From positions 65,791-89,790 of the forward strand of contig DAIOGF010000001.1 of NCBI GenBank assembly GCA_036745415.1: 24,000 nucleotides of DNA. Direction: 5' to 3'. This document shows positions 2,503 to 22,299 of this stretch, piece by piece (the stretch's first letter is position 1; each line of letters begins with the position of its first letter). Made by a program: the position numbers and the translations under genes. The notes beneath the pieces are model-generated. The model was given only the letters and a program-made list of their open reading frames with translations. It had not been told where the DNA came from and did no database searches. The DNA is from Candidatus Saccharimonadota bacterium. Its GTDB lineage: Bacteria; Patescibacteriota; Saccharimonadia; Saccharimonadales; UBA4665.

Positions 2503-2796
2503 ATGGAACACATCCAAACCATAATTTATCTAGCAGATGCCCAAGCAAGCATTGGACAAATAGATAATTTTATTAAGAGCATAATACAGGCCCTAGCCGG
2601 AATAGCCGGACTAGTAGCAACCGGATATTTCGTAGTTGGCGGTTTTAGCTATATTACTAGTAGTGGAAATCCGCAGAAATTAGAGAAAGCAAAACGTACG
2701 ATTACATTTTCTGGAATTGGCTTAGCAATTACCATCGGAGCATTTGTAATTAGCGATATTGTAAGCTCATTAGCAACTAAGGCATTTGGATCATAG
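2503..2796 (+). CDS. Type IV secretion system pilin-like protein (TrbC/VirB2-like, of the kind common in CPR/Gram-positive-type T4SS loci)
   Basis: 97 aa with two hydrophobic helices flanking a conserved loop, VGGFSYITSSGNPQKLEKAKRTI. AAGGAG lies about 10 nt upstream of the ATG. It is the first gene of a translationally coupled operon that contains VirB4. Confidence 0.65.
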   Translation: MEHIQTIIYLADAQASIGQIDNFIKSIIQALAGIAGLVATGYFVVGGFSYITSSGNPQKLEKAKRTITFSGIGLAITIGAFVISDIVSSLATKAFGS

Positions 2797-2798
2797 CA

Positions 2799-4136: not shown

Positions 4137-4594
4137 GAATAAGTATTGTTCCCGCAGAAATGACAAGTGTAAAAGATAAAATAATCGGCAATCTCGAGCT
4201 CAAACAAATATTACTCCTTGCCACACCTCTCATCTTTGCAATATTTACATACATAGCCATTCCGCCATTCAATAAAACTAATAGCCCTAAGATAATCTTG
4301 TTTATTGTTTTTAGCTTTATAAGCTCTATTTTGTCCATCAATATATCTGGAGAATTAGTTCTTGAAATTATTATTAATGGTTTTAAGTATTTAATAAGAC
4401 CAAAAATTCACTTAAGCACAATAAAAAATCTAGAAGATGAAATATTGGAAGATTTAAAAAACAATGAAATATCTATGGAAAATTCTAGACCACCGGAAAT
4501 TAAAGATCGAATTAAATTAGATTTACCAAAAGGTAACGTAGCTTTCTATTTTAATAGAAAAGGAGCACTGAATGTTAGATTCTATAAACAATAG
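4133..4594 (+). CDS. PrgI-family / VirB3-like small T4SS membrane protein
   Basis: 153 aa. The N-terminus, VPAEMTSVKDKIIGNLELKQILLLATPLIFAIF, matches the PrgI-family pattern (K-I/F-x-x-G-L-x-x-x-Q followed by two TM helices). It sits immediately upstream of VirB4, as VirB3 does in canonical systems. Confidence 0.6.
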   Translation: MRISIVPAEMTSVKDKIIGNLELKQILLLATPLIFAIFTYIAIPPFNKTNSPKIILFIVFSFISSILSINISGELVLEIIINGFKYLIRPKIHLSTIKNLEDEILEDLKNNEISMENSRPPEIKDRIKLDLPKGNVAFYFNRKGALNVRFYKQ

Positions 4595-5198
4595 GAAATC
4601 GTCTTCTTCAAAACAAATAGAAATAAAAAAGATAGAAGACGGAATAGTTCAAATCGGTAAAGATAAATATGTATCAATAATTAGAACTGGATCAATTAAT
4701 TTCGAATTAAAAAATGAGAAAGAACAGGATTCAGTAATAGATTCTTATGAAAATCTACTTAACGGGCTCAATTTCCCTGTACAAATATTAATTCGAACTA
4801 GGGAGCTAGAAATTAAAGAGTACCTTCAAAGCATTAATGAATTAAAGCAATACGAGAATGAAACAATCTACAAAAATCTTATAGAAAAATACTCATCATT
4901 CATTAGAAATTTAGTTAAGGATAAAAAAATTATATCTAGACATTTCTATATAGTATTTGGCATTGATTCAAAAGATAGAAATATGTCTAGCATAAAGCAA
5001 CAATTAGATATTAAGTTGGATTACTTAAAAAGAAATCTAAATAACGTAGGTATAGAAATAAAGAAACTAGATAGTTTAGAGCTTATAGATCTATTTCATA
5101 GCTTCTATTCCCCACATTCGAATAAATATCAGCCGATAAGCCATGAATCACTACTGGCGCTTAATAATGAATATATAAGGAGAGGAAATGAAATATAA
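4572..5198 (+). CDS. VirB4-like protein, N-terminal domain encoded as a separate cistron
   Basis: 208 aa. IEIKKIEDGIVQIGKDKYVSIIRTGSINFELKNEKEQDSVIDSYENLLNGLNFPVQILIRTREL ... SRHFYIVFG follows the N-terminal pattern of Gram-positive (CD1110/TcpF/PrgJ-type) VirB4 ATPases. It overlaps the PrgI-like gene by 23 nt and the ATPase cistron by 11 nt. Confidence 0.6.
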   Translation: MLDSINNRKSSSSKQIEIKKIEDGIVQIGKDKYVSIIRTGSINFELKNEKEQDSVIDSYENLLNGLNFPVQILIRTRELEIKEYLQSINELKQYENETIYKNLIEKYSSFIRNLVKDKKIISRHFYIVFGIDSKDRNMSSIKQQLDIKLDYLKRNLNNVGIEIKKLDSLELIDLFHSFYSPHSNKYQPISHESLLALNNEYIRRGNEI

Positions 5199-6861
5199 TA
5201 AATTCAATTTAGGAATAGAAAATCTTACTGATAAATTTTCATATACATCCCTTAAAGAAAATATTGATCACATTATTATAGATAATCAATTTGTGAGAAT
5301 TTTATACATATCAGGATATCCATACGTAGCAAGTAACGGCTGGATGGAAAATCTTATTAAATTTAATTCAGATAATGATTTATCTTTCTTTATAGAACAA
5401 ATACCTGCAAATTTAGCTTTGCCTAAATTAAATAGAAAAATTACTGAATTAGAGTCAACCAGAAGAGCTATGCTAAAAGACGGTAAATTAGTATCTTCAG
5501 ATATTAATGATCCGCTTAGTTCGGCTATGGAGCTTAAAGATAAAATAATTCGCGGTCAAGAAAAATTATTTCAGTTTAGTATCTATATTGCACTCCGAGA
5601 AAATTCTATTGAAGATATAAATAAATCTACGAATTTACTAGAGACCATATTAGCTTCTAAATTATTCAATACAAGAACTGCATACCTTCAGCAAATAGAT
5701 GCTATGCAATCTGTGCTTCCTAGATTAGAGGATAAATTAAAACAAAAAAGAAATCTTAACTCAACATCCTCAGCCTTAACCTTCCCCTTCATATCTTCTG
5801 AGGTTTTCCATAAGGATGGAACTCTTTATGGAATTAATAAGTCCAATGATTCATTGGTTATTATAGACAGATTCAGTCTTAATAATGCTAATTCAATAGT
5901 GTTTGCTCAGAGTGGAAGTGGAAAAAGCTACTTATCTAAAATTGAGATATTAAGACAATTAATGATAGGAACACAGGTTATAGTTATTGACCCAGAAGAT
6001 GAATATAGGGATCTATGTAATCACGTTAAAGGACAGTATATAGATATTGATATAGATTCAGATAACCACATTAACCCTTTCGATATTTCCAATAAGAACA
6101 AAAAACAAAATTTGTCAGAATTTATTCAGGAACTAACAGAAATATTAGATTTACTTACTGAAGGCTTAGATGTATCAGAAAAAGCTGTAATAGATAAAGC
6201 TTTAACTTATCTTTATTCAAAAGCTAGATCCAATACTGATATCTCGGATTTATATAGATATTTAAAGAAAAATAAATTCAATTTACTTGCTAATAAATTA
6301 GAAAAATACGTTAAGGGAAGTTTGAAATCTTTATTTGTGAATAAAACCAATATTGATTTAGATAATAGATTAGTTGTATTTGGCATAAAGAACTTACCTA
6401 GTGGCATCAAGCAACTAATGATGTTAATAATCTCTAATTACATATCTAACAAAGTAAAAAATGACCCAGTCAAAAGGTTATTGGTAATAGATGAAGGTTG
6501 GATGTTGCTTGAGAATGATATCACAGCTCAATTTATTGCAGGACTAGTTAGGCGAGCAAGGAAATACTACTTGGGGGTATCAATAATTTCCCAACAAGCC
6601 AATGACTTTTTAAATAACAAATATGGTTCAGCTATAGCTTCTCAAAGTTCAATGAGAATATTATTAAAACAAGACACAACAAGTATAGATAGAGTTAGCC
6701 TTGATTTCTCTTTGAGTAACTATGAGAAATCTTTTCTTTTAAACTGCGGTAAAGGTGACGCACTATTCATTCTAGACAGAACTCATGTTGCGGTAGAAGT
6801 AATTGCCTCCAATGATGAGCACCCAATAATAACAACTAACCCTAAGGAAAAACATGAATAA
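5188..6861 (+). CDS. virB4: VirB4-family T4SS ATPase (central and C-terminal ATPase portion)
   Basis: 557 aa. FVRILYISGYPYVASNGWMENLI is the VirB4 mid-domain signature. Walker A is FAQSGSGKSY (GSGKS codons 5914-5928). Walker B is RLLVIDEGW (6481-6501). The arginine-containing RRARKYYLGVSIISQ motif is also present. AGGAGAGG lies directly upstream of ATG 5188. Confidence 0.88.
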   Translation: MKYNKFNLGIENLTDKFSYTSLKENIDHIIIDNQFVRILYISGYPYVASNGWMENLIKFNSDNDLSFFIEQIPANLALPKLNRKITELESTRRAMLKDGKLVSSDINDPLSSAMELKDKIIRGQEKLFQFSIYIALRENSIEDINKSTNLLETILASKLFNTRTAYLQQIDAMQSVLPRLEDKLKQKRNLNSTSSALTFPFISSEVFHKDGTLYGINKSNDSLVIIDRFSLNNANSIVFAQSGSGKSYLSKIEILRQLMIGTQVIVIDPEDEYRDLCNHVKGQYIDIDIDSDNHINPFDISNKNKKQNLSEFIQELTEILDLLTEGLDVSEKAVIDKALTYLYSKARSNTDISDLYRYLKKNKFNLLANKLEKYVKGSLKSLFVNKTNIDLDNRLVVFGIKNLPSGIKQLMMLIISNYISNKVKNDPVKRLLVIDEGWMLLENDITAQFIAGLVRRARKYYLGVSIISQQANDFLNNKYGSAIASQSSMRILLKQDTTSIDRVSLDFSLSNYEKSFLLNCGKGDALFILDRTHVAVEVIASNDEHPIITTNPKEKHE

Positions 6862-7354
6862 AACCATCTACATAATCTGTGGAGTAATTTTATTTATTCT
6901 CATCATTTCTCCGGTCATAGCTTTAGCCAATTTGACAGATTTAATTTCAATTAATAATCCAAATACCAATATCTTTAAAGATGTATATGTATATATGGGC
7001 CCAAATGTAGACGGGGATAATTACGTTTTCGGAAACTGCACATGGTGGGTGGCTTATTTAAAAATTAAAGAAGGTGATCCGATTCCAAATAACTGGGGAA
7101 ATGCAGCTACTTGGAGTTCGCGCTCTGTATTCGACGGATACCGTGTAGATCATTCACCTTCAGTAGGTTCTATAATGCAAGATTCATATGACGCAGGTGG
7201 ACTAGGACACGTTGCTATGGTTACATCCGTTGATATTTATGGAAATTGGACCATTAGCGAAATGAATTATATTGGATTAGATATTGTTGACAGTAGGAGC
7301 TTAAATTATAGCCAAAGTAACAAGTACAATTTTATTCATAAAGGAGGACTTTGA
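6854..7354 (+). CDS. Membrane-anchored CHAP-domain peptidoglycan hydrolase (VirB1-equivalent of Gram-positive-type T4SS)
   Basis: 166 aa. N-terminal anchor IYIICGVILFILIISPVIALA. The CHAP catalytic Cys sits in FGNCTWWVAY (Cys codon 7037-7039) and the catalytic His in GLGHVAMV (7208-7210). It overlaps virB4 by 8 nt. Confidence 0.8.
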   Translation: MNKTIYIICGVILFILIISPVIALANLTDLISINNPNTNIFKDVYVYMGPNVDGDNYVFGNCTWWVAYLKIKEGDPIPNNWGNAATWSSRSVFDGYRVDHSPSVGSIMQDSYDAGGLGHVAMVTSVDIYGNWTISEMNYIGLDIVDSRSLNYSQSNKYNFIHKGGL

Positions 7355-7433: not shown

Positions 7434-7868
7434 ATGAAAAAAGAAGTAAATACTAAAGAAGATTTCAACACTACACTTATGAATAAAATTAATTTACTCA
7501 CAAGTGGTTTAGACTATCTAAAAGTAAGTATGGGTGAACTAAGAACTGAGCTTAAAAATGATATGGGTGAACTAAGAACTGAGCTTAAAAATGATATGGG
7601 TGAACTAAGAGGGAACATGAATGGAATTAAGGATGAAATTAATCAGATTAAATTGTCCATTGTTGATGTACGCAAACATGTAACTAGCATTGATGAAAAA
7701 TTGGCCATAAATAATTCAGAGATAGTAGCAGTAAGAAAAATTGCCTACGAAAATACTGAAGCAATTAAAACTCTAGATTATAAAGTAGACCATCTGTACG
7801 AAGACTTGAAGAAACAAATAGAAGACAATCGAGAAAATGATCAAGGATTAATACTAAAACACGCTTGA
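7434..7868 (+). CDS. Small soluble coiled-coil protein with tandem 11-aa repeats (MGELRTELKND), function unknown
   Basis: 144 aa with no TM helix and heptad-like charged/hydrophobic periodicity throughout. GGAG lies 4 nt upstream of the ATG. Its 3' end overlaps the convergent tpiA 3' end by 28 nt (7841-7868). Confidence 0.6.
   Translation: MKKEVNTKEDFNTTLMNKINLLTSGLDYLKVSMGELRTELKNDMGELRTELKNDMGELRGNMNGIKDEINQIKLSIVDVRKHVTSIDEKLAINNSEIVAVRKIAYENTEAIKTLDYKVDHLYEDLKKQIEDNRENDQGLILKHA
7530..7610 (+). repeat. In-frame 33-bp tandem repeat: two perfect copies plus a 15-nt partial third copy
   Basis: ATGGGTGAACTAAGAACTGAGCTTAAAAATGAT occurs at 7530-7562 and identically at 7563-7595. ATGGGTGAACTAAGA at 7596-7610 then diverges. 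Confidence 0.95.
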
Positions 7869-8614
7869 ATCATTTCGTTGAATTGTTGATACTTCAAACT
7901 TGCACTACCCACTAAAGCACCATCGCATCCAGGTACTGCTAGATATGCAGATATATTGCTAGGATCAACACTGCCTCCATATATTACCCGAATACTGTTG
8001 GATATTTTTTCACCAAAAAGATAGGCTGTCTCTTTTCTAATGTAATCTATCATCTCCTTAACATCGTCAGGCATCGCTTGTTTGTTCCCAAATGTAGATA
8101 TTGCCCAGACTGGCTCATAGGCTATAACCATTTCAGTAACCTCATTTTCAGTTAGCTCTGAGAGTGCAGACGAAATTTGCTCATTAATCACTCGCTTAGC
8201 ATGGCCATCCTGTCTCTCTGTGAGATTCTCACCTACGCATAAAATGGGTTTAATTTTATTTCTGAACGCTGCCTTTATTTTTTTAGATATAATTTTATCG
8301 TCTTCATGGAAATAAATTCTTCGCTCACTGTGACCAACAATAACGTACTGGGCAATCCCTCTAAGCATTGTAAAACTAACTTCACCAGTAAATGCACCCT
8401 CATCTTCATAATAGGCATTTTGTGCGGCTAGCTTAATTTTTCTTAAATCTAATTCCTTGCTAAGGGGCTGCAATGCAACAAATGTAGGGGCAACGACAAC
8501 TTCTATGTCTCTATGAGACGTCATAGTTGTAGATAGATTATGGATGTATTTGCTAGCTTCTTGCACATTAAAGTGCATCTTAAGATTTGCTGCTATGAAT
8601 TTTCTTCTACTCAT
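7841..8614 (-). CDS. tpiA: Triosephosphate isomerase
   Basis: 257 aa. Signatures present: AANLKMH (catalytic Lys), VIVGHSERR (catalytic His), AYEPVWAI (catalytic Glu), YGGSV, DGALVGSASL. Confidence 0.9.
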   Translation of the reverse strand: MSRRKFIAANLKMHFNVQEASKYIHNLSTTMTSHRDIEVVVAPTFVALQPLSKELDLRKIKLAAQNAYYEDEGAFTGEVSFTMLRGIAQYVIVGHSERRIYFHEDDKIISKKIKAAFRNKIKPILCVGENLTERQDGHAKRVINEQISSALSELTENEVTEMVIAYEPVWAISTFGNKQAMPDDVKEMIDYIRKETAYLFGEKISNSIRVIYGGSVDPSNISAYLAVPGCDGALVGSASLKYQQFNEMIQACFSINP

Positions 8615-8636
8615 TAGGCTAATTTTAACATAAGCA

Positions 8637-9917
8637 TTATTTATCTAATAAAGACTCAACTCCAGGTAATTTATGCCCTCCAATAAGTTCTAGAGCCGCG
8701 CCACCGCCTGTAGATAGATGGTTAACCACTTTATCCATTACTTTAGATTGAACGAATCCTGCGGTATCTCCACCGCCAATTAATGAATATGGCTTATTGC
8801 CAAATTCACCGCACATAGCCTGAAGCACTAATTCACTACCATGAGAATATGGTCCTGTTGAAGTAATTAAACTTCTGATTTCAGTTACGCCTAATGTACC
8901 ATTCCAAATTACCGTACTCATTGATTGCATCACTCCTGCTATATATGCACCGCTAAATGGCCCTATATCGGCTATCTTCTCACTAGCAAGAATTCTATAG
9001 CTAGACTTAGCAGGTCTCTTAGGATAACTTTCTATTTCGCTAATTGAATATGCTGACCAATCCACTATTCTAATGTTCGAACTTGGATCTATTTTCTTAG
9101 TGACTACGACATCAAAAGGTAACTGAAGCTTAAATTTTCTTTTCTTAGATTCTAATTCCGCTAAATGTAAAATCTTTCTAGCTAGAGGTAGCTCATTCTC
9201 CTCATACATACTAGAACCTATTTCTATTCCAGTCGCCTTTAGAAAAGTGTTCGCCATAGCACCACCGAGCATAATGAAATCTGCGGAACTAATAAATCTC
9301 TCAATAATATCTATTTTATCTGCGATCTTAGCTCCCCCAATTATTACCATAAGTGGCTTTTCTGGTTTTGATGCAACATTAGTTATCGTATCCACTTCTC
9401 TTTCTAGAAGAAGACCGGATACACTGGGTAGATATTTAGTAATTGCAGAAGTAGAAGCATTGAATCTATGCACAACACCAAAAGCATCTTGTACGAAAAC
9501 TTCAGCTAATTCACTTAAAGATTTTGCAAACTCTTTACTGTCCTTCTCTTCGCCTTCATAAAATCTTAAGTTTTCTAATAAAATTATTTGTCCATTCTTA
9601 AGACTCTTAACCTGTTCTAGAGTTTTTTCTCCAATAGCATTTGGAGCGAATGCAATTGCTTTGCCTAAAAGCTTGGCTAATCTCAAAACTATAGGCTGCA
9701 AAGACAAACTTGGATCAATTCCTTTTGGCCTACCGAGATGAGAACAAATTACTATTTTGCAGTTTTGATCCAATAAGTACTTTATTGTTTCTAAAGATTG
9801 CTTAATCCTATAATCATCAAGGATTATCCCATTTTTTAAAGGCACATTATAGTCGACCCTAAGTAACACTGTCTTATTTCTAAGATTAATATCTCTAACT
9901 GTTTTCTTTGTAAACAT
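8637..9917 (-). CDS. pgk: Phosphoglycerate kinase
   Basis: 426 aa. Signatures present: LLRVDYNVPL, CSHLGRPKG, LLENLRFYEGEEKD, GGAKIADKI, WNGTLGV, GGGDTA, STGGGAALE. The start overlaps the pyk stop (TAATG on the minus strand at 9915-9919). Confidence 0.95.
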   Translation of the reverse strand: MFTKKTVRDINLRNKTVLLRVDYNVPLKNGIILDDYRIKQSLETIKYLLDQNCKIVICSHLGRPKGIDPSLSLQPIVLRLAKLLGKAIAFAPNAIGEKTLEQVKSLKNGQIILLENLRFYEGEEKDSKEFAKSLSELAEVFVQDAFGVVHRFNASTSAITKYLPSVSGLLLEREVDTITNVASKPEKPLMVIIGGAKIADKIDIIERFISSADFIMLGGAMANTFLKATGIEIGSSMYEENELPLARKILHLAELESKKRKFKLQLPFDVVVTKKIDPSSNIRIVDWSAYSISEIESYPKRPAKSSYRILASEKIADIGPFSGAYIAGVMQSMSTVIWNGTLGVTEIRSLITSTGPYSHGSELVLQAMCGEFGNKPYSLIGGGDTAGFVQSKVMDKVVNHLSTGGGAALELIGGHKLPGVESLLDK

Positions 9918-11347
9918 TATTCAATTACCCTCACTTTTATTGTATCCGTCGATCCCACTACTCCAGGATATTTACCCGATGCGCTCACAACCATATCGCC
10001 AGTACTTAATACTTTATTTTTAGCCAACCAATTCGTAAGCTTTGTAGCGGCAAATCTGTCGATTGGTCTAACGTAACTCTTAAGCATATACACAATAGAT
10101 AATTGCTGGGCTATTTTTCTATCTGAAGTTACGGCAATTATTGGAATCTTGGATCTTCTTGAAGCTATTAGTCTAGCCGTTGCGCCTGATTTAGTCTCAG
10201 CTACAATAGCTTTTGCTTGAATTGAATTAGCTAATTTAACGATTGCAGAAGATATAGCTAATTGCTTTGTATCTTTTATGTATTTTTGTTCCAAATTTTG
10301 TTCCATATTCTTTTCTGTATACGAAATAACTCTTCTCATAAATTTAACAGCCTCAATTGGATAACTTCCAACAGCTGTTTCATCACTTAACATTAAACAA
10401 TCTGCGCCCAATGTGACTCCGGAAGCAATATCACTAACCTCTGCCCTAGTCGGCTCAGAACTAGTAGTCATGCTGTATAGCATTTGCGTAGCAACAATAA
10501 CTGGCTTCGATTGATTAATGCATTTATCTATAATTTGGCGCTGATAAATAGGAACAGCCTCGGGCATAACCTCATAAGCTAAATCTCCTCTTGCGACCAT
10601 TATTGCATCAGCTTCAGATATTATGTCGTCTATATTATCTATGGCTCTTTGAGTTTCTATCTTAGCTATTATATTAGTGCGCATATTAAGACTATCTAAA
10701 ATCTTGTGCAGTTCTCTGATATCTTTATCGGACTGAATAAAACTCTGAGCCACATAATCTACATCTAGCGTGGAAGCAAAAACTAAATCGGCTCTATCTT
10801 TAGAAGTTATTACATCCCCGCCAAAATCTGTATCAGGTAAATTTATACCTTTACGCTTAATTAAGGATGCTGAATTTTCTGCTCTTAAATATACTATTCC
10901 TTCACTCACGCTAGTAACCACGGCTTGAAGTTTTCCATCAAAGAATATAGCTCTATGTCCTCTCTTCACTTTAGTGCTTAGATCGTACTGGGTAGGTATA
11001 ACACCGTTTTGGTTATAGTCGGCATTGTATCCAAGCTTGAAGCTCTTCCCTTTAGTTATCTCAATAACACCTTCGAAATCTCCTAATCTAATTTTAGGAC
11101 CCTGAAGATCTATAATGATAGAGACTGGTTTTGCGAGATCGTTTGATGCCTCTCTAATCCATTTGATTTGATCTAATCTTTCCTGATTAGTTCCATGAGA
11201 GAAGTTAATTCTAATTCCATTGGCTCCGGCATCTAAAAGTTTATATATCTGATTAATATTATTGGTTGATGGACCAACTGTAGCAATGATTTTAGTTCTT
11301 CTAAAATTCTTTAGTGAAAATTTTGAATCAGTTTTTTTAACTTCCAA
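9917..11347 (-). CDS. pyk: Pyruvate kinase
   Basis: 476 aa. Signatures present: RRTKIIATVGPST, IRINFSHG, DLQGPKIRLG, IIAKIETQRAI, IMVARGDLAYE, VIVATQMLYSM, PTRAEVSDIA, LMLSDETAVGSYP. Confidence 0.95.
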   Translation of the reverse strand: MEVKKTDSKFSLKNFRRTKIIATVGPSTNNINQIYKLLDAGANGIRINFSHGTNQERLDQIKWIREASNDLAKPVSIIIDLQGPKIRLGDFEGVIEITKGKSFKLGYNADYNQNGVIPTQYDLSTKVKRGHRAIFFDGKLQAVVTSVSEGIVYLRAENSASLIKRKGINLPDTDFGGDVITSKDRADLVFASTLDVDYVAQSFIQSDKDIRELHKILDSLNMRTNIIAKIETQRAIDNIDDIISEADAIMVARGDLAYEVMPEAVPIYQRQIIDKCINQSKPVIVATQMLYSMTTSSEPTRAEVSDIASGVTLGADCLMLSDETAVGSYPIEAVKFMRRVISYTEKNMEQNLEQKYIKDTKQLAISSAIVKLANSIQAKAIVAETKSGATARLIASRRSKIPIIAVTSDRKIAQQLSIVYMLKSYVRPIDRFAATKLTNWLAKNKVLSTGDMVVSASGKYPGVVGSTDTIKVRVIE

Positions 11348-13971: not shown

Positions 13972-14417
13972 ATTTTCTTTTTAAGATTTTCTATTTCTAA
14001 TTCTAATTTTTTAATCATTTCAATTTGTTCTTCTGCCGTGTTAGCCAAATAAGTTAATGTTTTATGGTCGGCATCTGCCTTAGCGTCCTGTTGACCTTGA
14101 ATAACATTTTGACCAACCATAATGACTGGAAGAAGTACTAACTGTAGAAAATTTTGCGATATCCATGCAATAAGAGTAATCATCGAACTTGCTATTATCC
14201 AAGATGGAAAAAGATGCTTTAAGCTTCCGTTAATACTTACCAATATTGCTGGTAGTGAGACTATAGACAATATGGCGAATAAATAGGCGCTCCACATAGT
14301 TCCAATTGCTTTAGTTATCCTAACTGCAAGAATCTTATTAAACCTATTAAAGACATTGACTTCTTTTAACAGAGTATTTGGATGATATACGTTTGCATTC
14401 GGCTTAAGTCTATCCAT
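13968..14417 (-). CDS. Small membrane protein, DUF1003-like (two TM helices followed by a coiled-coil tail)
   Basis: 149 aa. AIGTMWSAYLFAILSIV ... LLPVIMVGQNVIQGQQDAKADADHK resembles the DUF1003 pattern (GSWxF ... IMMSQNRQ ... D). It overlaps the tatC stop by 8 nt, so it is the last gene of the tat operon. Confidence 0.4.
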   Translation of the reverse strand: MDRLKPNANVYHPNTLLKEVNVFNRFNKILAVRITKAIGTMWSAYLFAILSIVSLPAILVSINGSLKHLFPSWIIASSMITLIAWISQNFLQLVLLPVIMVGQNVIQGQQDAKADADHKTLTYLANTAEEQIEMIKKLELEIENLKKKI

Positions 14418-15414
14418 AAACTACTTGAATTTTCTTTGGCTCGTTTTCTTTCTTAGCTGGCTTAGTCACTTTACTGAAGCCATCTATATGCTTAACTTTT
14501 CGAGGCTTTTCTATGACGCTAGGTTGGATGTTCGCAGTGCTGGCTTTAACTGAGCTGTGGTGAATTTGCGACGGCTTATATACTCCAAACAATTTAGGAT
14601 TAACGTAATTAGAATATTTAATTTCTTCAACATCATCGAAATTTATTTCGTAATCTTCACGGATATTCATATTTATATTTCCAAATGAATCATAAGTAAC
14701 GTATCTTCTAACAGTCTTTTTGTTTTTGATAAATAACATTGCTATTGATATGTAATAAAGAACAATGATAGGAATAGCTACTATGAACTGTGAAATAGGA
14801 TCGTAGGTAAATGGAAGAATTACTGCAATTATTAAAGCGCCAACTACAACCTGCTTTTGATATTTTAATAACTTAGTAGGATTTATAGGCTTAATCTGGT
14901 CAATAAAGTCTATAAGTAGTGGCATTTGGAAGAAAACAGCAAAGCTACAAATAATATTTATAACGTAATTAATATAATCATTAGCAGATATTAGGGGTTT
15001 TATTGAGCTATTAGAATATCCCGAGAAAAAGTGCAGTGAAGTAGGTATGATCACATAAAAACCAAAAGCTGCGCCCACTAAGGCCAAAAGAACAGAGTAG
15101 AATGTTATTTTTAATAATCTAGATGTATTAACTCTCTGATAAACTGCAGGCTCAATAAATCTAATAATGTTATATACAAGAACTGGGAGAGCTATGAAAA
15201 CACCCATAATTCCAGCCACTTTCATAACAATATTAAAGCCACCACCTGGAGTATTGTAGTAAAGAGGCTGGCCTAGTGGACTGTCTAAGAATTTAATGAT
15301 TGCAACTCTAAAGAAATAGCCTAAAGTACCACTAACTGCAACAGCTAGAAATACCCAAAACGCCCTCTTCTTTAATTCGTTAAGATGGTCATGAAATGTC
15401 TGCGACCCGTCCAC
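14410..15414 (-). CDS. tatC: Twin-arginine translocase subunit TatC, with a ~100-aa hydrophilic C-terminal extension
   Basis: 334 aa with a GTG start preceded by GAGAGGGTAGG. The HLNELKKRAFWVFLAVAVSG opening and six TM helices fit the TatC layout. Residues from ~235 onward (KNKKTVRRYVTYDSF...KKENEPKKIQVVYG) are extra relative to typical ~250-aa TatC proteins. Confidence 0.85.
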   Translation of the reverse strand: MDGSQTFHDHLNELKKRAFWVFLAVAVSGTLGYFFRVAIIKFLDSPLGQPLYYNTPGGGFNIVMKVAGIMGVFIALPVLVYNIIRFIEPAVYQRVNTSRLLKITFYSVLLALVGAAFGFYVIIPTSLHFFSGYSNSSIKPLISANDYINYVINIICSFAVFFQMPLLIDFIDQIKPINPTKLLKYQKQVVVGALIIAVILPFTYDPISQFIVAIPIIVLYYISIAMLFIKNKKTVRRYVTYDSFGNINMNIREDYEINFDDVEEIKYSNYVNPKLFGVYKPSQIHHSSVKASTANIQPSVIEKPRKVKHIDGFSKVTKPAKKENEPKKIQVVYG

Positions 15415-15747: not shown

Positions 15748-16362
15748 ATGGATATAAGTAAACTAATTCAATCCAATAAGATAATTAGCGATCAGATAGA
15801 CAAGAGATCACTAAAAGTTGTATTGGAGAATTTATCTAAGACTATAGAAAGAGATGTTCCAGGAGATATAGTCGAATTAGGTTGCTATAAAGGTACGACA
15901 AGTCTTTTTATAAGAAGAGTATTAGATTATTACAAGTCAGATAAGAAATTCTATGTTTATGACTCATTTGAAGGACTCCCCTGGAAATCTTCCGATGATC
16001 AATCTATTATTGGTGAGGTATTCAAAGAGGGTGAACTTAAAGCCAATAAAAAAGAACTCATAAATAACTTCAAAAAAGCTGGGTTTACACTACCCATAAT
16101 TCACAAAGGTTGGTTTAAAGATATTAAGCATCAAGACATGCCAAAAAACATTAGTTTTGCATTCTTGGATGGAGACTTCTTTGAATCAATCTTTGTCAGC
16201 CTAGAGCTGGTTTATCATTTTCTTTCTGATGGAGGAATTATAGTTGTAGATGATTACGACAACCCTAAGCTTCCAGGTGTAAAGAAAGCAGTAGATACAT
16301 TTTTTATAGATCTAGATGTAAATATTCAGAAAATTGCCAATGAAGCAGTAATATATTTTTAA
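15748..16362 (+). CDS. Class I SAM-dependent methyltransferase, TylF/MycF (macrocin O-methyltransferase) family
   Basis: 204 aa. GDIVELGCYKGTTS (SAM-binding loop) and FAFLDGDFFESIFVSLELVYHFLSDGGIIVVDDY (metal/SAM motif DGDxYES ... GG ... DDY) are the TylF-family hallmarks. Confidence 0.8.
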   Translation: MDISKLIQSNKIISDQIDKRSLKVVLENLSKTIERDVPGDIVELGCYKGTTSLFIRRVLDYYKSDKKFYVYDSFEGLPWKSSDDQSIIGEVFKEGELKANKKELINNFKKAGFTLPIIHKGWFKDIKHQDMPKNISFAFLDGDFFESIFVSLELVYHFLSDGGIIVVDDYDNPKLPGVKKAVDTFFIDLDVNIQKIANEAVIYF

Positions 16363-16399: not shown

Positions 16400-16528
16400 C
16401 TAGATGTCTGATTTAGCTTTATTCCTTAGAGCCATAGTTGAGCTTATAAGTACAAAACTAGTTACAGCGCCGATTATTAAAGTAGCTTCAGAGAAAATGT
16501 TTTCGAATTTACCTGAACCAGTGTTTGG
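16400..16528 (-). other. C-terminal sorting signal: PNTG (16517-16528), then GxF, a hydrophobic helix and a basic tail
   Basis: CCA AAC ACT GGT (minus strand) encodes PNTG. It is followed by SGKFENIFSEATLIIGAVTSFVLISSTMALRNKAKSDI and the stop codon. Confidence 0.7.
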
Positions 16529-18040
16529 CGTAGCTGGTACGGTTGGCAAGCCAAGGAAATAACTCGTAGTAAAAGCACTAGGAACTCCACCTCCATCACC
16601 AATTGTTATGCTAGAGGTTGGATCGCTACTATTAAAAATAGGAGTTCCACTTCCAATTCCAACTATGTAAATATTTCCTAATTTATCTACTGATGAAGAA
16701 TTGTGATATGCGGTGGTACTAGAAGCGCCTGTATCTACAGTTCTAACGAATTTAAATCCACCATTTAAATCTACTCCAATGAAAAATGCACTAGTATTGG
16801 CTGATGTTAAGTCATTGGCATTTGAAGCTGGATTAAAATGAATAGTACCACTCCAAGAACCAACTGCATACAGACCGTTGTTGTAGTAACTTAATGAATT
16901 AATGTATACAGTACTATTACCATCACTATTTTTAAATGTCTTAGTCCATGTATAATTTCCATCATTAGTTAGTTTGGTTATAAATGCATTATATTTATTA
17001 TTATTACCAGTGGTTGAACTATCATCAACCACAACAGAACCTCCACGACCATCAAAAGTTATAGAACCAGAATACTGACCACCTAAGTAGATGTTGTTAT
17101 TATCGTCTAAAACTAAAGATTGTGGGTATACGTAAGAATTATCTGAAGAAGCTAGATATTTCGTCCAGATAACATTTCCGTTAGAATCGTACTTACTTAC
17201 AAAACCCTCACCTGAATTAACCGCAGGGCTTGGCAATTCATGATAACCACAAAGATAAATATTTCCATTTTTATCTAATTTAATAGAAGAGCTGTAGGTA
17301 TTTGAATCGGAAGGATCTAAATTGGTAATTTTTGTCCATTTATAATTACCGGAATCATCATACTTAGTTATATAACTTTGAAAACTAGAAAATGTTTGAG
17401 TGTTAGAGCCATTTAAGCCATCAAAAGTTACAGTTCCAGTAACACTACCCGAGATATATAAATTATTTGAAGCGTCTGTCGTTAGTGCATTAACAATATA
17501 CCCATTTGAACCACTTGGAATAATATAATCCCTAATAAAATTACCATTGTTATCGTAAGCGGCAACAAATCCGAAGCTATCAGGATTGAAATATGACTGG
17601 TCGCCAATTCCAACAGTGCCTGAACCTACACCGCCTATATAAACGGTTCCGTTAGGAGCTACGGTTAGCCCGAAACAAAAAGCTCCTGAGTTTTGATCTA
17701 AAGGCACAACTGCCTTAGTCCAAACATAAGCTCCACTACTGGAGTACTTTGTAACGGCACAGCCTGGATTCATACCATTTAATGGAGTAGATATAGTGTC
17801 ATGATTACCAATAGGATCAAAAGTCACTGTTCCACCAAAAACACTAAGAGTATAAGTATTATTATTGGAGTCTGTAGCAGAAAACATTCCCTCACTAGCC
17901 CCACCGTCTGATAGACCATTAGTTTTAGTGAACCTATACTGAGGCAATTCACTGCTATCTGCTTTCACCATACCACTTGAAGCAGTTGTTAATATTAACG
18001 TATACAATAATGCGCTAAATATCCTAAAAAATCTTTTCAC
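16400..18040 (-). CDS. Secreted surface protein with SBBP-like beta-propeller repeats and a C-terminal TPNTG sorting signal (paralog 1)
   Basis: The maximal ORF reaches 18058 (GTG). I prefer GTG 18040 because AGGGGAG lies 5 nt upstream of it, which gives MKRFFRIFSALLYTLILTTASSGMVKA|DS as the signal peptide. Repeated units of the type G-N-(I/L)-Y-(I/L/V)-x-G ... (F/Y)(I/V)(T/S)K(Y/L)(D/T)xxGxxxWTK recur. The protein is rich in N/S/G/T/Y. The C-terminus is ATPNTGSGKF + TM + RNKAKSDI. Confidence 0.75.
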   Translation of the reverse strand: MKRFFRIFSALLYTLILTTASSGMVKADSSELPQYRFTKTNGLSDGGASEGMFSATDSNNNTYTLSVFGGTVTFDPIGNHDTISTPLNGMNPGCAVTKYSSSGAYVWTKAVVPLDQNSGAFCFGLTVAPNGTVYIGGVGSGTVGIGDQSYFNPDSFGFVAAYDNNGNFIRDYIIPSGSNGYIVNALTTDASNNLYISGSVTGTVTFDGLNGSNTQTFSSFQSYITKYDDSGNYKWTKITNLDPSDSNTYSSSIKLDKNGNIYLCGYHELPSPAVNSGEGFVSKYDSNGNVIWTKYLASSDNSYVYPQSLVLDDNNNIYLGGQYSGSITFDGRGGSVVVDDSSTTGNNNKYNAFITKLTNDGNYTWTKTFKNSDGNSTVYINSLSYYNNGLYAVGSWSGTIHFNPASNANDLTSANTSAFFIGVDLNGGFKFVRTVDTGASSTTAYHNSSSVDKLGNIYIVGIGSGTPIFNSSDPTSSITIGDGGGVPSAFTTSYFLGLPTVPATPNTGSGKFENIFSEATLIIGAVTSFVLISSTMALRNKAKSDI

Positions 18041-18076
18041 TTTATCTCCCCTTAACACTTAATTCTTATGAATTGT

Positions 18077-18100
18077 ATTAATATAATTTAAGCATTAGCG
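18077..18100 (-). promoter_or_regulatory. Upstream element shared by the two SBBP paralogs; likely contains the -10 region
   Basis: Plus-strand ATTAATATAATTTAAGCATTAGCG at 18077-18100 compares with TTTAATATAATTTAATCATTGGCT at 19825-19848. Read in the gene direction, both give AATG(C/A)TTAAATTATATTAA about 35-55 nt upstream of the start codon. Confidence 0.3.
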
Positions 18101-18154
18101 TAATGAATTTGCAAATACATAATTAGTTATTAAAGTCAGACTATCTACTTTTAT

Positions 18155-18280
18155 CTAAGCTTTTCTGAATTTATTCCTGGCGACTAGCAATCCAGTAGTG
18201 ACAGTGCATATAAGCGACAATACTAATAGAGCTTGCTCATTTGTTAGGAATTTACTGAAAACACCCGCACCTGTATTAGG
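18155..18280 (-). other. C-terminal sorting signal: PNTG (18269-18280), then GxF, a hydrophobic helix and a basic tail
   Basis: CCT AAT ACA GGT (minus strand) encodes PNTG. It is followed by AGVFSKFLTNEQALLVLSLICTVTTGLLVARNKFRKA and the stop codon. Confidence 0.7.
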
Positions 18281-19795
18281 CGTCTTAGGTACAGCAGTAG
18301 GATATGCAGCTAATTGATAGCTAGTAGTAAGAGTACTTGTAACTCCTTGACCATCGCCAATTTGCTGTCGATCAATTCCTCCCGGTCCGTCAAACACAGG
18401 AGTACCACTTGTGATACCAACTATATAAATATTGCCAATTCCGTCAACCGAAGCCTGAACATACAGCGCAGCGGTACGTCCGTCAAAAGATATATCCGTA
18501 ACTTTAGTAAATTTGTACGAACCATCTTGTCCATAACCGCTAAAATAAGCATTATTGTTACCATTTGGAGCAGTTAAGTTAGTCGAAGCATCATCCTGAT
18601 TGAATTGAACGGTACCATCAAATGCTCCTACAGCATAAATCTCATCATTATAAACTAACAAGGAATTTATATATGAGTGATTTCCTTCGCCAGTAGCTAT
18701 GTGTATTCTAGTCCATTGGTAACTACCATCTGAAGCGTACTTGCTTATAAAACCAGAATCCGAGTTGGTGACTGCCGTATGATTACCACCCTCCCCATCA
18801 AATGTAGTAGATCCATTAAAGAACCCACCTACGTAAATATTATCAGTACTATCAAGTGCAATAGAGTTACATCCAACTTGGTTGCTGCCAGTAGTAATAA
18901 CAGATTTTACCCAAATCGAATTTCCTTGTGAGTCTAACTTTTCAAGAAAAGCATATCTACTATTATCACTATTATCATATTGACCACAAGTGTATATGTT
19001 TCCCGATTTATCTACAGTTATAAAACTGTTAAGTGAGAAGCCATATGGCTCAACATCTGCTATCTTTACCCACTGATATACGCCCTGGTCGTTATACTTC
19101 GCAGTGTACGCAACTTGACTGCTATAAGTATTGTAATTTGTTCCATCAAAAGAAACATTGCCCTGTATATTACCTCCGATATAAAGATTATTGTTCGAGT
19201 CCACTGACAATGTATTTAACTCATTCCAAGAACTGGAATCCCCTCTAGGAAGTATTAGGGTCTTCAGATAACTACCGTCAGTTTTGTATTCATTAACATA
19301 GGAGTAACCATATGAACCTCCGTATGTGTCAGAATATGAGTGAGTTCCACCTGGGCCATCATAAATTACAGAGCCCGCAGAATAACCTCCAACGTACACA
19401 ACGCCATTACTACCTACAGCTACGGAATCACAAATATCAAACCCATTAGTTGGATCTAGGTAATCGATAAATTTAGTCCACTGATAAACTCCTGCGCTAT
19501 TGTATTTTGTTAATGCGCAAGTAACAGTCATTCCTTGTCCACCCGTTGGAGTGTAAGAACTAGTATTATCTCCTGGATTAAACTTCACAGTTCCATTCCA
19601 TATGCCTGCAGTATATGTATTATTACTTGAATCAGTAGCTGAAGCAGTACCATTAGACCACCCATTTGTTACGTCATTTATTTTTGTGAACCTATAACTT
19701 GGATAGTTGGCTGCAGCCTGAGCAAGACCACTCATTCCAGTAAATAACCCTATTATGGATATAAAGGTTCCTGCTAATTTAATTTTTATTCTCAT
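18155..19795 (-). CDS. Secreted surface protein with SBBP-like beta-propeller repeats and a C-terminal TPNTG sorting signal (paralog 2)
   Basis: 546 aa. The ATG is preceded by GAGGGG. The signal peptide is MRIKIKLAGTFISIIGLFTGMSGLAQA|A. It is collinear with paralog 1: YRFTK(T/I)N, DS(N/S)NNTYT, Y(V/Q)WTK, NNLYI(S/G)G, DK(N/S)GNIY(L/T)CG, (N/D)NIY(L/V)GG, GNIYIVGI(G/T)SGTP(I/V)F, IGDG(G/Q)GV. The C-terminus is KTPNTGAGVF + TM + RNKFRKA. Confidence 0.75.
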   Translation of the reverse strand: MRIKIKLAGTFISIIGLFTGMSGLAQAAANYPSYRFTKINDVTNGWSNGTASATDSSNNTYTAGIWNGTVKFNPGDNTSSYTPTGGQGMTVTCALTKYNSAGVYQWTKFIDYLDPTNGFDICDSVAVGSNGVVYVGGYSAGSVIYDGPGGTHSYSDTYGGSYGYSYVNEYKTDGSYLKTLILPRGDSSSWNELNTLSVDSNNNLYIGGNIQGNVSFDGTNYNTYSSQVAYTAKYNDQGVYQWVKIADVEPYGFSLNSFITVDKSGNIYTCGQYDNSDNSRYAFLEKLDSQGNSIWVKSVITTGSNQVGCNSIALDSTDNIYVGGFFNGSTTFDGEGGNHTAVTNSDSGFISKYASDGSYQWTRIHIATGEGNHSYINSLLVYNDEIYAVGAFDGTVQFNQDDASTNLTAPNGNNNAYFSGYGQDGSYKFTKVTDISFDGRTAALYVQASVDGIGNIYIVGITSGTPVFDGPGGIDRQQIGDGQGVTSTLTTSYQLAAYPTAVPKTPNTGAGVFSKFLTNEQALLVLSLICTVTTGLLVARNKFRKA

Positions 19796-19824
19796 ATCAC
19801 CCCTCTTCTTTTGCTTAAAAATAA

Positions 19825-19848
19825 TTTAATATAATTTAATCATTGGCT
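19825..19848 (-). promoter_or_regulatory. Second copy of the upstream element shared by the SBBP paralogs
   Basis: See the entry for 18077-18100. About 19 of 24 positions are identical by eye, in the same orientation, at a roughly similar distance from the start codon (about 30-55 nt). Confidence 0.3.
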
Positions 19849-19869
19849 TCATACAATTATAATAAATTT

Positions 19870-20001
19870 CTATCTTGCAATTTGCCTAATCTTATACCTA
19901 TAAGCTGTCGTAAGTGCTGCGGAAACTGAAAGTGCAGACAAAATAATTAGAGATATCTCATTCGAGATCGAACCATCAAACACTCCGTATCCGGTATTTG
20001 G
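19870..20001 (-). other. C-terminal sorting signal: PNTG (19990-20001), then GxF, a hydrophobic helix and a basic tail
   Basis: CCA AAT ACC GGA (minus strand) encodes PNTG. It is followed by YGVFDGSISNEISLIILSALSVSAALTTAYRYKIRQIAR and the stop codon. Confidence 0.7.
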
Positions 20002-22299
20002 AGATTTTACAGTTGTATCACTTAATGATTTGCCGCCAATAAGACTAGTTAAATCCCAGTTATACAAATTGTAGTGGCCCTGAACCCACAAATTATTGTT
20101 GTAAGGATCGTAAGTAACATCGTAAGTTCCATTCAAGCCAGGGTAATCTAACGTATAATTGACCGCTGAAGTAAAGTCTGATTCACCAAAAACCCATGAT
20201 GCGCTCATATTATCTGTAACCCCATTAGACATATCAAAGCCTAGAACTCTGTAATTATCATCGTCTGCCACAAATAATCGATTATTATTATTGTCGTATG
20301 TTACACCCCATGGATAAGATAAGCCGTTCTGAGTTAAGTTAGTCGTATTGGTCGTAAAGTCTGGCTGACCAATTACATTAACCGCGTCCATTCCATTCGT
20401 GATACCGTTAGCTAATTTATATACCATGATACGGTTATTATAGGCATCAGCGGCATAAAGCAGGTTGTGATTAAGGTCTATCGTAAGCCCACCAGGACTA
20501 TCTAATCCACTCTGGTTTAGATTAGCATTATCTGAAGTAAAGTCTGGCTGACCGAGTACATAGCTTGCATCCATTCCGTTCGTAATACCGTTAGCTAAGT
20601 TATATACCATAATACGGTTATTGCTCTCATCAGAAACAAATAGTTGCTTTGTTTTAGAGTCATATGTAGACTCATAATTTCCACACAGACCATTAACAGT
20701 ATCGCCACATGAATTACTAGTAAAGTCTGGCTGACCAATTACATTAACCGCATTCATTCCATTAGTAATACCATTATTGAAATTAAAGACTAACACACGA
20801 CTATTTGCGAAGTCACTTACAAATAAGTCATTTAAGCTTGAGTCATAGTTAATTCCCCATAAGTCACAGAAATTACTTGCACTGGCATTATCGCAGCCGG
20901 TAGTAGAATTAAAATCGCTTCGACCTAGAACATAAGTTGGTATGGTATTAACCAATTGATCATTATTGTCTAAGGCATAAACTAAAATTCTAGAATCAGA
21001 ATCATCGGTTACAAACATCCTATGGTGAGAATGATCAATAGCAGTTGCTGGCTCATTCCACGATACTACTCCAGCCAAATCATCATATGGAGTCATTCCG
21101 TCAGTTATGACATTAGTTAGATTATAGAAAAGCACCCTAGAATTATCTGAATCCGTAACTATTAAATTCTTATCTAACGAATCATATGTAACACCCCAAG
21201 GTTCATAAAAGCCAGAATTTAAGTTACTCCAGTCGCTGGAAGTAAAATTGCTTTGGCCTAAGACATGTGATGCAGCCATACCATCGGTTATTCCATTAGA
21301 TAAATCATATTCCAACAATCTATCGTTGTTACTATCCACTACATATAGACTCTTGGTAGCAGGATCATAACTCATTTGAGCAGGATTATCCAAGCTAGTG
21401 GAGGTTGTGCCATTTCCATTCCTATTGAATCCTGGCTGTCCTATCTCATGAACTGCATCCATGTTAGTAGATGGACCGTTAGATAGATCAAATGCCGTAA
21501 TACGGTTATTGCCTGCTTCTGATACTAGAAGATAGTTATCATTGCTGTCGTATGTAATTTCTTGTGGATATATAAATTGATTAGTACCACTACCTTCATA
21601 ATTGTCGGTGAAGTTAGCTTGGCCCAGTACATAAGTAGCTGACATACCGTTTGTAATACCATTGGATGTGTCGAATATTAATACCCTGTTATTATATTCA
21701 TCGGCTACATATAAGTACTTCGAGCCGTCATAGTACATGCCGCCTGGATAATTGAAAGTGCTGTCCGTAGTTCCAGGACTACTACTCGTAAAATCTGTTT
21801 GACCTAAAACATAAGAAGCTGACATACCGTTTGTAATACCATTGGATAAATCAAAAACTAGTACTCTATTATTTCCATTATCTGAAACGAATAATAGTTT
21901 ATGTGTGGTATCTAATGCCATACCCCATGGACTACTCATTTTAGAGCTGGTCGATCCGCTAGATAGAGTATCGAAATCTGGCTGTCCTAGAACATAAGAG
22001 GCATTTTTACTTACAGGATGATCACTGCTGTCTAGATTAAATACAAGTACCCTATTATTGTTATCGTCAGTTACAAACATTCGGTGATTAGCCGAATCAA
22101 CCAAAGTTTCTGATGGATACCGCAGTCCAGAACTCGATCCACCGTAGTAGCCATAGTTTCTTGTTGGATTCGGGAAGCTTGTTGCTGAAGCAGCCGAAGC
22201 CCCTCTTACTAATACAGTTGATGAAATAGTAATTAAACTAACACTAAAGAAAGTTACCGCTTTCAATTTATGCAATATTCGCTGTTTTTTATTTAACAC
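19870..22299 (-). CDS. Secreted NHL-repeat protein (11-12 blades, probably a double six-bladed beta-propeller) with a C-terminal SPNTG sorting signal
   Basis: 809 aa with a GTG start preceded by AGGGG. The signal peptide is ...FFSVSLITISSTVLVRGASA|A. Eleven clear repeats match (D)xxNNR(V/I)(L/M)(V/I)(F/Y)(D/N)LSNGITNGMxAxxV(L/I)GQ(P/T)DFTS, and a degenerate twelfth follows. The C-terminus is KSPNTGYGVF + TM + YRYKIRQIAR. Confidence 0.85.
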   Translation of the reverse strand: MLNKKQRILHKLKAVTFFSVSLITISSTVLVRGASAASATSFPNPTRNYGYYGGSSSGLRYPSETLVDSANHRMFVTDDNNNRVLVFNLDSSDHPVSKNASYVLGQPDFDTLSSGSTSSKMSSPWGMALDTTHKLLFVSDNGNNRVLVFDLSNGITNGMSASYVLGQTDFTSSSPGTTDSTFNYPGGMYYDGSKYLYVADEYNNRVLIFDTSNGITNGMSATYVLGQANFTDNYEGSGTNQFIYPQEITYDSNDNYLLVSEAGNNRITAFDLSNGPSTNMDAVHEIGQPGFNRNGNGTTSTSLDNPAQMSYDPATKSLYVVDSNNDRLLEYDLSNGITDGMAASHVLGQSNFTSSDWSNLNSGFYEPWGVTYDSLDKNLIVTDSDNSRVLFYNLTNVITDGMTPYDDLAGVVSWNEPATAIDHSHHRMFVTDDSDSRILVYALDNNDQLVNTIPTYVLGRSDFNSTTGCDNASASNFCDLWGINYDSSLNDLFVSDFANSRVLVFNFNNGITNGMNAVNVIGQPDFTSNSCGDTVNGLCGNYESTYDSKTKQLFVSDESNNRIMVYNLANGITNGMDASYVLGQPDFTSDNANLNQSGLDSPGGLTIDLNHNLLYAADAYNNRIMVYKLANGITNGMDAVNVIGQPDFTTNTTNLTQNGLSYPWGVTYDNNNNRLFVADDDNYRVLGFDMSNGVTDNMSASWVFGESDFTSAVNYTLDYPGLNGTYDVTYDPYNNNLWVQGHYNLYNWDLTSLIGGKSLSDTTVKSPNTGYGVFDGSISNEISLIILSALSVSAALTTAYRYKIRQIAR
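20354..20805 (-). repeat. Three consecutive 183-bp (61-codon) intragenic DNA repeats inside the NHL gene
   Basis: GTAAAGTCTGGCTGACC recurs at 20354, 20537 and 20720, an exact 183-nt period. The first two copies stay highly similar for about 85 nt (...TCCATTCC(A/G)TTCGT(G/A)ATACCGTTAGCTAA(T/G)TTATATACCAT(G/A)ATACGGTTATT). Confidence 0.85.
21630..21847 (-). repeat. A second pair of near-identical intragenic repeats in the NHL gene (180-bp period)
   Basis: ACATAAG(T/A)AGCTGACATACCGTTTGTAATACCATTGGAT at 21630-21667 and 21810-21847 differ at one position. Confidence 0.85.

Follow-up and report, generated by a model that had tools for sequence, protein, structure and literature searches.

A candidate sortase-type sorting signal, (T/S)PNTG, on three consecutive beta-propeller surface proteins of a Saccharimonadales-like bacterium

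The closest described counterpart of the element reported here is the (S/P)PXTG sorting signal of Clostridioides difficile. The C. difficile sortase SrtB cleaves SPKTG, PPKTG, SPSTG and SPQTG between T and G in vitro, and does not cleave LPETG or NPQTN (PMC4155245). One housekeeping-like sortase handles diverse surface proteins in this organism, and a sortase substrate is defined as carrying its motif 17-45 aa from the C-terminus (PMC4155245). Sortases have been reported in a TM7 genome, in a survey for which LPXTG was the only signal searched (PMC3812714), and in more than half of the genomes of the candidate phyla radiation (CPR) (PMC6744442). Saccharibacteria and other CPR bacteria live on host bacteria, and the display of their surface proteins is poorly described. 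This report addresses three consecutive open reading frames (ORF1, ORF2 and ORF3) in a stretch of 24,000 nucleotides from Candidatus Saccharimonadota bacterium (assembly GCA_036745415.1, contig DAIOGF010000001.1, positions 65,791 to 89,790), hereafter the window. The secreted propeller proteins that they encode end in a shared TPNTG or SPNTG motif, a transmembrane (TM) helix and a basic tail, which we take to be, probably, a lineage-specific form of the sortase-type cell-wall sorting signal. No description of a (T/S)PNTG signal in CPR bacteria was found in the literature searched.

The three genes follow one another on the minus strand, as given by the ORF listing and translation. ORF1 lies at 16400..18058 (552 aa from a GTG start, 546 aa from an alternative start), ORF2 at 18155..19795 (546 aa) and ORF3 at 19870..22299 (809 aa). 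Upon translation, their C-termini are TPNTGSGKFENIFSEATLIIGAVTSFVLISSTMALRNKAKSDI, TPNTGAGVFSKFLTNEQALLVLSLICTVTTGLLVARNKFRKA and SPNTGYGVFDGSISNEISLIILSALSVSAALTTAYRYKIRQIAR, respectively. The ORF1 signal occupies 16403..16531 (-) and runs from TPNTGSGKF (16505-16531) through a spacer and a TM helix to an RNKAKSDI tail. That of ORF2, at 18158..18283 (-), starts with TPNTGAGVF (18257-18283) and ends in an RNKFRKA tail, and that of ORF3, at 19873..20004 (-), starts with SPNTGYGVF (19978-20004) and ends in an RYKIRQIAR tail, each with its spacer and TM helix in between. An earlier, sequence-only reading of this DNA had described three shared C-termini with a hydrophobic helix and an R/K-rich tail, arranged in the tripartite layout of sortase substrates; the description is exact on translation, and the layout is present in all three proteins. 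The T-G bond stands 38-40 residues from the C-terminus in ORF1-3 (39 aa in ORF1), which places the xPxTG pentapeptides (TPNTG, TPNTG and SPNTG) inside the range of 17-45 residues. The best 19-residue Kyte-Doolittle windows of the three tails reach 1.8-2.1, and an R/K-rich, positively charged end follows each hydrophobic segment. Leu is absent from position 1 of the pentapeptide, where the window has T, T and S and the relatives have T, A or S. A reading of the motif as an N-glycosylation sequon was rejected, since N-T-G is not N-x-S/T.

Chance is far from enough to explain this pattern. When the window and 10 kb on each side (44 kb) were read in six frames, with ORFs of 50 aa or more, the patterns '.P.TG.G' and 'NTG.G' gave five matches, three of which are the tails of ORF1-3, while the two others adjoin TM helices just outside the window. 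As a DNA pattern, T-P-N-T-G-x-G-x-F matched IMG/VR viral contigs 37 times, never with a C-terminal helix and basic tail, and metagenome contigs at least 120 times, with the tail context in one among the matches listed. The viral and metagenome scans served only as negative controls. The motif is also maintained. Any two of the three tails share 6-7 of nine residues, and different codons are used for 3, 5 and 6 of these, while the remainder of each tail is 21-33% identical to the ORF2 tail. A strain variant of ORF2 (P0001), 96% identical overall and 80% identical across the aligned 49-residue tail segment, keeps KTPNTGAGVF unaltered, with all tail-segment changes elsewhere. Strain variants alter flanking and helix residues and never the motif, and the ORF1 motif is likewise invariant while its helix varies. 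With shared residues that mostly differ in their codons and strain variants that spare the motif, the tails bear the signature of purifying selection on the motif, with the helix drifting freely.

The propeller locus is common in metagenomes, and its relatives define the signal further. The nearest relative in the genome collection is a Candidatus Saccharimonadales metagenome-assembled genome (MAG), at 31% identity. A scan of the same collection with an alignment of the SBBP propeller family found only three Saccharibacteria-labelled loci (L013, L066 and L088), with the window's own species absent, and no sortase beside an xPNTG substrate. The SBBP orthologue of L013, a Saccharimonadales MAG, has the tail motif APNTGFGSF. 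Three adjacent genes found at both L011 and L259 encode a Glug protein with TPNTG[YF]GHF and two SBBP proteins with TPNTGFAKG and APKTGFA[NS]S, and two further SBBP proteins carry TPATGYAKS (P0009) and TPSTGFAKG (P0010). An orthologue of ORF3 (P0190, 59% identity), with the same NHL propeller type, ends in KTPNTGFGSN, a TM helix and a basic tail, and a Vgb-lyase-like propeller encoded beside the NHL orthologue (L263) has APETGYGKP. In all independent tails, from the window and the related loci, the motif lies 38-43 residues from the end. By this comparison the tail signal is modular, with the same kind found on orthologues and on unrelated passengers in other, Saccharimonadales-like contigs.

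Twelve independent tails allow the positions beyond the pentapeptide to be judged. In eight of them TG is followed by F or Y; the next position is G in eight and A in four, and F at +4 occurs in only about five (others read, for example, TPNTGFAKG, TPATGYAKS and APKTGFASS). The sequence-only reading had proposed a conserved G-x-G-x-F extension. Of this extension, a Gly (sometimes an Ala) does commonly stand two positions past the Gly of the cleavage site, usually with an aromatic residue in between, but the Phe at +4 is not general. A working consensus would be, roughly, [T/A/S]-P-[N>K,E,S,A]-T-G-[F/Y/small]-[G/A]. Among more distant homologues, P0020 has a canonical LPETG at the equivalent place and one NHL homologue ends in LANTG. 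The close homologues P0002, P0003, P0005 and P0008 have a plain TM helix and basic tail without the motif. An alignment of ten tails, searched against a collection of 5.8 billion proteins, gave 716 word-sharing candidates and none at E<=10. The only true tail among the metagenome pattern matches listed is TPNTGSGDFDGTMGLLVFSFVSIILGFVYLRVSLREHFLA, at the start of a metagenome contig of 53% G+C (L141 5-124 (+)). As this organism is much richer in G+C than the window (~34%), the tail signal may reach beyond the low-G+C lineage. In a Saccharibacteria-labelled MAG of 50% G+C, a 394-aa ORF (L088 62-1243 (+)) contains an internal VPYTGAGDVAKVIGFVSMLVLWSLVLAYVFLKRK, which resembles a sorting signal and lies ~124 residues ahead of the C-terminus, not at the end.

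From the anatomy of the tails, their conservation pattern and their modularity, we infer the enzyme, the cleavage and the attachment as follows. The proteins would be exported via Sec by their N-terminal signal peptides, and the helix and basic tail at the C-terminus would retain them in the membrane. The T-G bond would then be cut by a membrane-bound cysteine transpeptidase, the gene of which would lie elsewhere in the genome; the specificity of this enzyme would most plausibly be like that of the C. difficile class B sortase, with S or P accepted at position 1. The threonine carboxyl would be transferred onto peptidoglycan, so that the cell, a Saccharimonadales-like member of the CPR, would display both the SBBP and the NHL propellers at its surface. 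An adhesin or host-recognition role is plausible for such epibiont surface propellers.

Several lines of evidence support this sortase-type reading. P, T and G, the TM helix, the basic tail and the signal peptide occur in all three proteins, and the spacing of 38-43 aa falls inside the range of sortase substrates given above (PMC4155245). The motif is under purifying selection, the signal is modular across passengers, and in P0020 an LPETG stands in its place. On the anchor model PF00746, a related TPNTGYGHF tail scores 18.2 bits and outscores the canonical LPETG control at 16.2 bits, both being under the cutoff of 20. The AlphaFold2 (AF2) models put the motif in a disordered linker ahead of the terminal helix: in ORF2, residues 498-519, which contain the motif, are disordered and precede a helix at 519-545, and in ORF3 the motif lies in a low-confidence linker. 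Besides the reports of sortases in TM7 and CPR genomes, a class B sortase is present in the L066 MAG, labelled Saccharibacteria (163.8 bits against a TIGR03064 cutoff of 153.75); its closest relatives are labelled Dojkabacteria, and its neighbouring substrate ends in NPNTYDN. Finally, peptidoglycan genes (MurD, MurL, a G5/DUF348 protein and CHAP) flank the propeller locus.

A number of observations weigh against this reading. No sortase was found by Pfam in the window or in 10 kb on each side, in agreement with the sequence-only reading, which had seen none in the window. None is adjacent at any of the five substrate loci examined, and the contigs of the substrate homologues P0007, P0004, P0336 and P0020 are sortase-free. 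Wherever a CPR class B sortase was seen in its genomic context, it adjoined an NPNT[YF]DN protein and not an xPNTG protein. These sortase-substrate pairs (L066 14737-17784 and L250 1538-4598) are divergently adjacent, and the 723- and 727-aa neighbours end in NPNT[YF]DN, a TM helix and a basic tail. Of the class B sortase homologues looked up in context, P0079, from the CPR, has an NPNTF substrate as its neighbour; P0146 comes from a sporulating Firmicute and was therefore set aside as irrelevant. Sortases are also patchy outside Microgenomates, according to Méheust et al. (PMC6744442), and T or S at position 1 is non-canonical. TIGR01167 and PF00746 miss the three window tails even at E<=10; these models are insensitive in this protein set, given that the canonical LPETG control itself scores only 16.2 bits. 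A sortase model also gives no account of a small neighbouring protein of 133 aa, in which APNTGAG is N-terminal and probably faces the cytoplasm.

These points bear differently on the other explanations. The sequence-only reading had itself raised the possibility that the motif simply reflects recent common ancestry of the three tails, to which gene conversion may be added, with no sorting function. ORF1 and ORF2 are paralogues (40% identity) and the genes are adjacent, which speaks for it, but the ORF3 passenger is unrelated, most of the shared residues have different codons, and the tails are otherwise dissimilar. The motif also recurs on other passengers in other organisms. By the codon differences and this modular recurrence on unrelated passengers elsewhere, the ancestry explanation is effectively refuted, and we give it hardly any credence. 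That the tails are plain, uncleaved C-terminal membrane anchors is unlikely. The PNTG-x-G would then serve a structural or contact function beside the membrane, for instance as a turn or hinge or by touching the wall or S-layer, and would be no protease site. Such an anchor would suit the close homologues P0002, P0003, P0005 and P0008, which use a TM helix and basic tail without the motif, and it would suit the lack of a nearby sortase, the failure of the curated anchor models to match, and the 133-aa neighbour, in which the motif is N-terminal to the TM helix and sortase cleavage would be senseless. It would leave unaccounted for why the conserved P, T and G are exactly the residues that define sortase signals, why the C-terminal spacing of 38-43 aa is fixed across unrelated passengers, and why a homologue has a canonical LPETG in place of the motif, in a phylum where sortases exist.

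Cleavage could also be carried out by a dedicated non-sortase enzyme, such as a rhomboid, CPBP or exosortase-like intramembrane protease. C-terminal sorting would then follow a new scheme, with GlyGly-CTERM/rhombosortase and MYXO-CTERM/myxosortase as its analogues. Conservation past the pentapeptide, where most tails have an aromatic residue and next to it G or A, speaks for such an enzyme, as do the standard LPXTG models that miss the tails and the 44 kb without a sortase. However, none of the five loci examined has a candidate of those families nearby, Pfam found no exosortase, rhombosortase or archaeosortase in the 44 kb, and the NCBIfam models of other CTERM signals are silent on the window tails at E<=10. 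Having neither a model match nor a nearby enzyme, the tails give no sign of belonging to the PEP-CTERM, GlyGly-CTERM, PGF-CTERM, MYXO-CTERM or similar classes. The xPxTG core is moreover a sortase signature, and dependence on residues past the pentapeptide is also reported for the Bacillus anthracis SrtB (PMC11987632). Hence we regard a non-sortase enzyme as quite improbable. We are equally doubtful of a bolder proposal, namely a Saccharimonadia-specific display system defined by [T/A/S]PNTG-[F/Y]-G tails, in which a dedicated transpeptidase (a sortase of a new subclass, or an enzyme of another kind) would read past the pentapeptide and the APNTGAG neighbour would be a functional partner (for example an acceptor, stalk or regulator) and not a coincidence. 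The sortase-type signal remains the probable reading.

The passengers of the signal are propellers of two kinds. ORF1 and ORF2 score 28.5 and 21.0 bits on PF06739 (SBBP) against a Pfam cutoff of 20.5, and ORF1 also matches a LipL53-type SBBP model in part. The AF2 model of ORF2 is all-beta (pLDDT 82.3, pTM 0.81), and the top match of a Foldseek search against the PDB is the CylK propeller (E=7e-20), followed by NHL and sialidase propellers. ORF2 thus combines an SBBP score above the threshold with a propeller fold. ORF3 matches NHL (PF01436) at E=2e-41 with five scoring stretches in Pfam, and contains ten NNRVL-like repeats; its AF2 model (pLDDT 78.5) has 12 four-stranded blades, which form two six-bladed propellers. 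The Pfam scores bear out the SBBP-like and NHL propellers that had been proposed from the sequence, and so do the structure predictions for ORF2 and ORF3. By inspection, the N-termini of ORF1-3 are basic, then hydrophobic, then end in an A-x-A-like site, and N-terminal helices are present in the models of ORF2 and ORF3, as expected of a secretion signal. Export of ORF1-3 by Tat was ruled out, as none has a twin-arginine motif. Some 1 kb separates the propeller array from the genes for TatC (14410-15414 (-)) and TatA (an adjacent small ORF, L001 3009-3176), and a TylF-type O-methyltransferase gene (15748-16362 (+)) lies in between. A promoter and terminator scan of the array gave nothing above the shuffled expectation.

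Other genes of interest surround the array. The 133-aa protein (L005 8008-8409 (+)) starts with MNPNIAPNTGAGNKEKNYFGR and continues with a TM helix and a stalk rich in Thr and Pro. Good support for its start codon comes from a GAGGTG Shine-Dalgarno sequence and from a promoter-like site, TTGACT-17-TATAAT, upstream; its gene overlaps the start of the next by 11 nt. This next gene, just past the right end of the window (L005 8399-9577 (+), JGI Ga0208382_1000010), encodes a fourth secreted protein, of 392 aa, that ends in PTKLVNTGPGDTITLFIGATTVGYFMSRRILKNKLS. It has no Pfam match and carries an N-T-G-x-G core, a TM helix and a basic tail, with L-V instead of T-P. The tail recalls the NVQTG motif proposed for C. 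difficile CbpA, which SrtB does not cleave in vitro (PMC4155245). In the flank past an MFS gene (L005 860-3447), a MurD-like ligase is paired with a MurL epimerase, beside two single-domain response regulators and a 7TM histidine kinase (HisKA_7TM). Within the window, a Saccharibacteria-style type IV secretion cluster (2503-7354 (+)) comprises two pilin-like genes (one also TrbL-like), a PrgI-like and a TraC-like gene, a VirB4/TraG-type ATPase and a CHAP hydrolase. The glycolysis genes for TIM, PGK and pyruvate kinase (7841-11347 (-)) adjoin this cluster.

Earlier genome surveys sought LPXTG alone and the curated models miss such tails, and surface propellers of this kind are therefore annotated as plain hypothetical proteins. 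The pattern [TAS]P[N]TG[FY][GA], with a TM helix and basic tail and located 38-43 residues from the end, would make it possible to list systematically which surface proteins of these epibionts are anchored to the wall. A defined consensus would also point to the sortase as a testable, and possibly targetable, step in host attachment.

How, then, does the signal compare with known systems? The canonical LPXTG signal of class A sortases (PF00746, TIGR01167) has the same signal peptide, an xPxTG motif ~40 residues from the C-terminus, a helix and a basic tail, but the window tails lack Leu at position 1 and are missed by the curated models. The CPR class B sortase and NPNT[YF]DN pairs (L066 and L250, labelled Dojkabacteria or Saccharibacteria) belong to the same superphylum, and their substrates likewise have a P-N-T core ahead of a TM helix and a basic tail. 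Their signal is however of the staphylococcal NPQTN type, with N at position 1 and F or Y at position 5, and their sortase adjoins the substrate, whereas the window signal ends in G and has no adjacent sortase. The LAXTG signals of class E sortases in Actinobacteria tolerate a residue other than Pro at position 2. The neighbouring LVNTGPG tail resembles them in this respect, and the distant NHL homologue mentioned above ends in LANTG. In the three window tails, position 2 is still Pro and position 1 is not Leu. The likeness to the C. difficile (S/P)PXTG signal, already suggested by the sequence-only reading, holds best: the layout is tripartite, P, T and G are fixed, position 1 is small or polar and not Leu, the SPNTG of ORF3 is a literal SPXTG (PMC4155245), and the TPNTG of ORF1 and ORF2 is one conservative S-to-T change away. 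It differs in that position 1 is here mostly Thr or Ala and not Ser or Pro, and in the strong preference of these tails for Asn at position 3 and for an aromatic residue and then Gly or Ala after TG. The organism is a CPR bacterium, and no cognate sortase was found in the 44 kb. The tails are best filed as a putative lineage-specific sortase-type signal, with the (S/P)PXTG signal of C. difficile as its nearest class; they would extend sortase biology by a small step and introduce no new principle.

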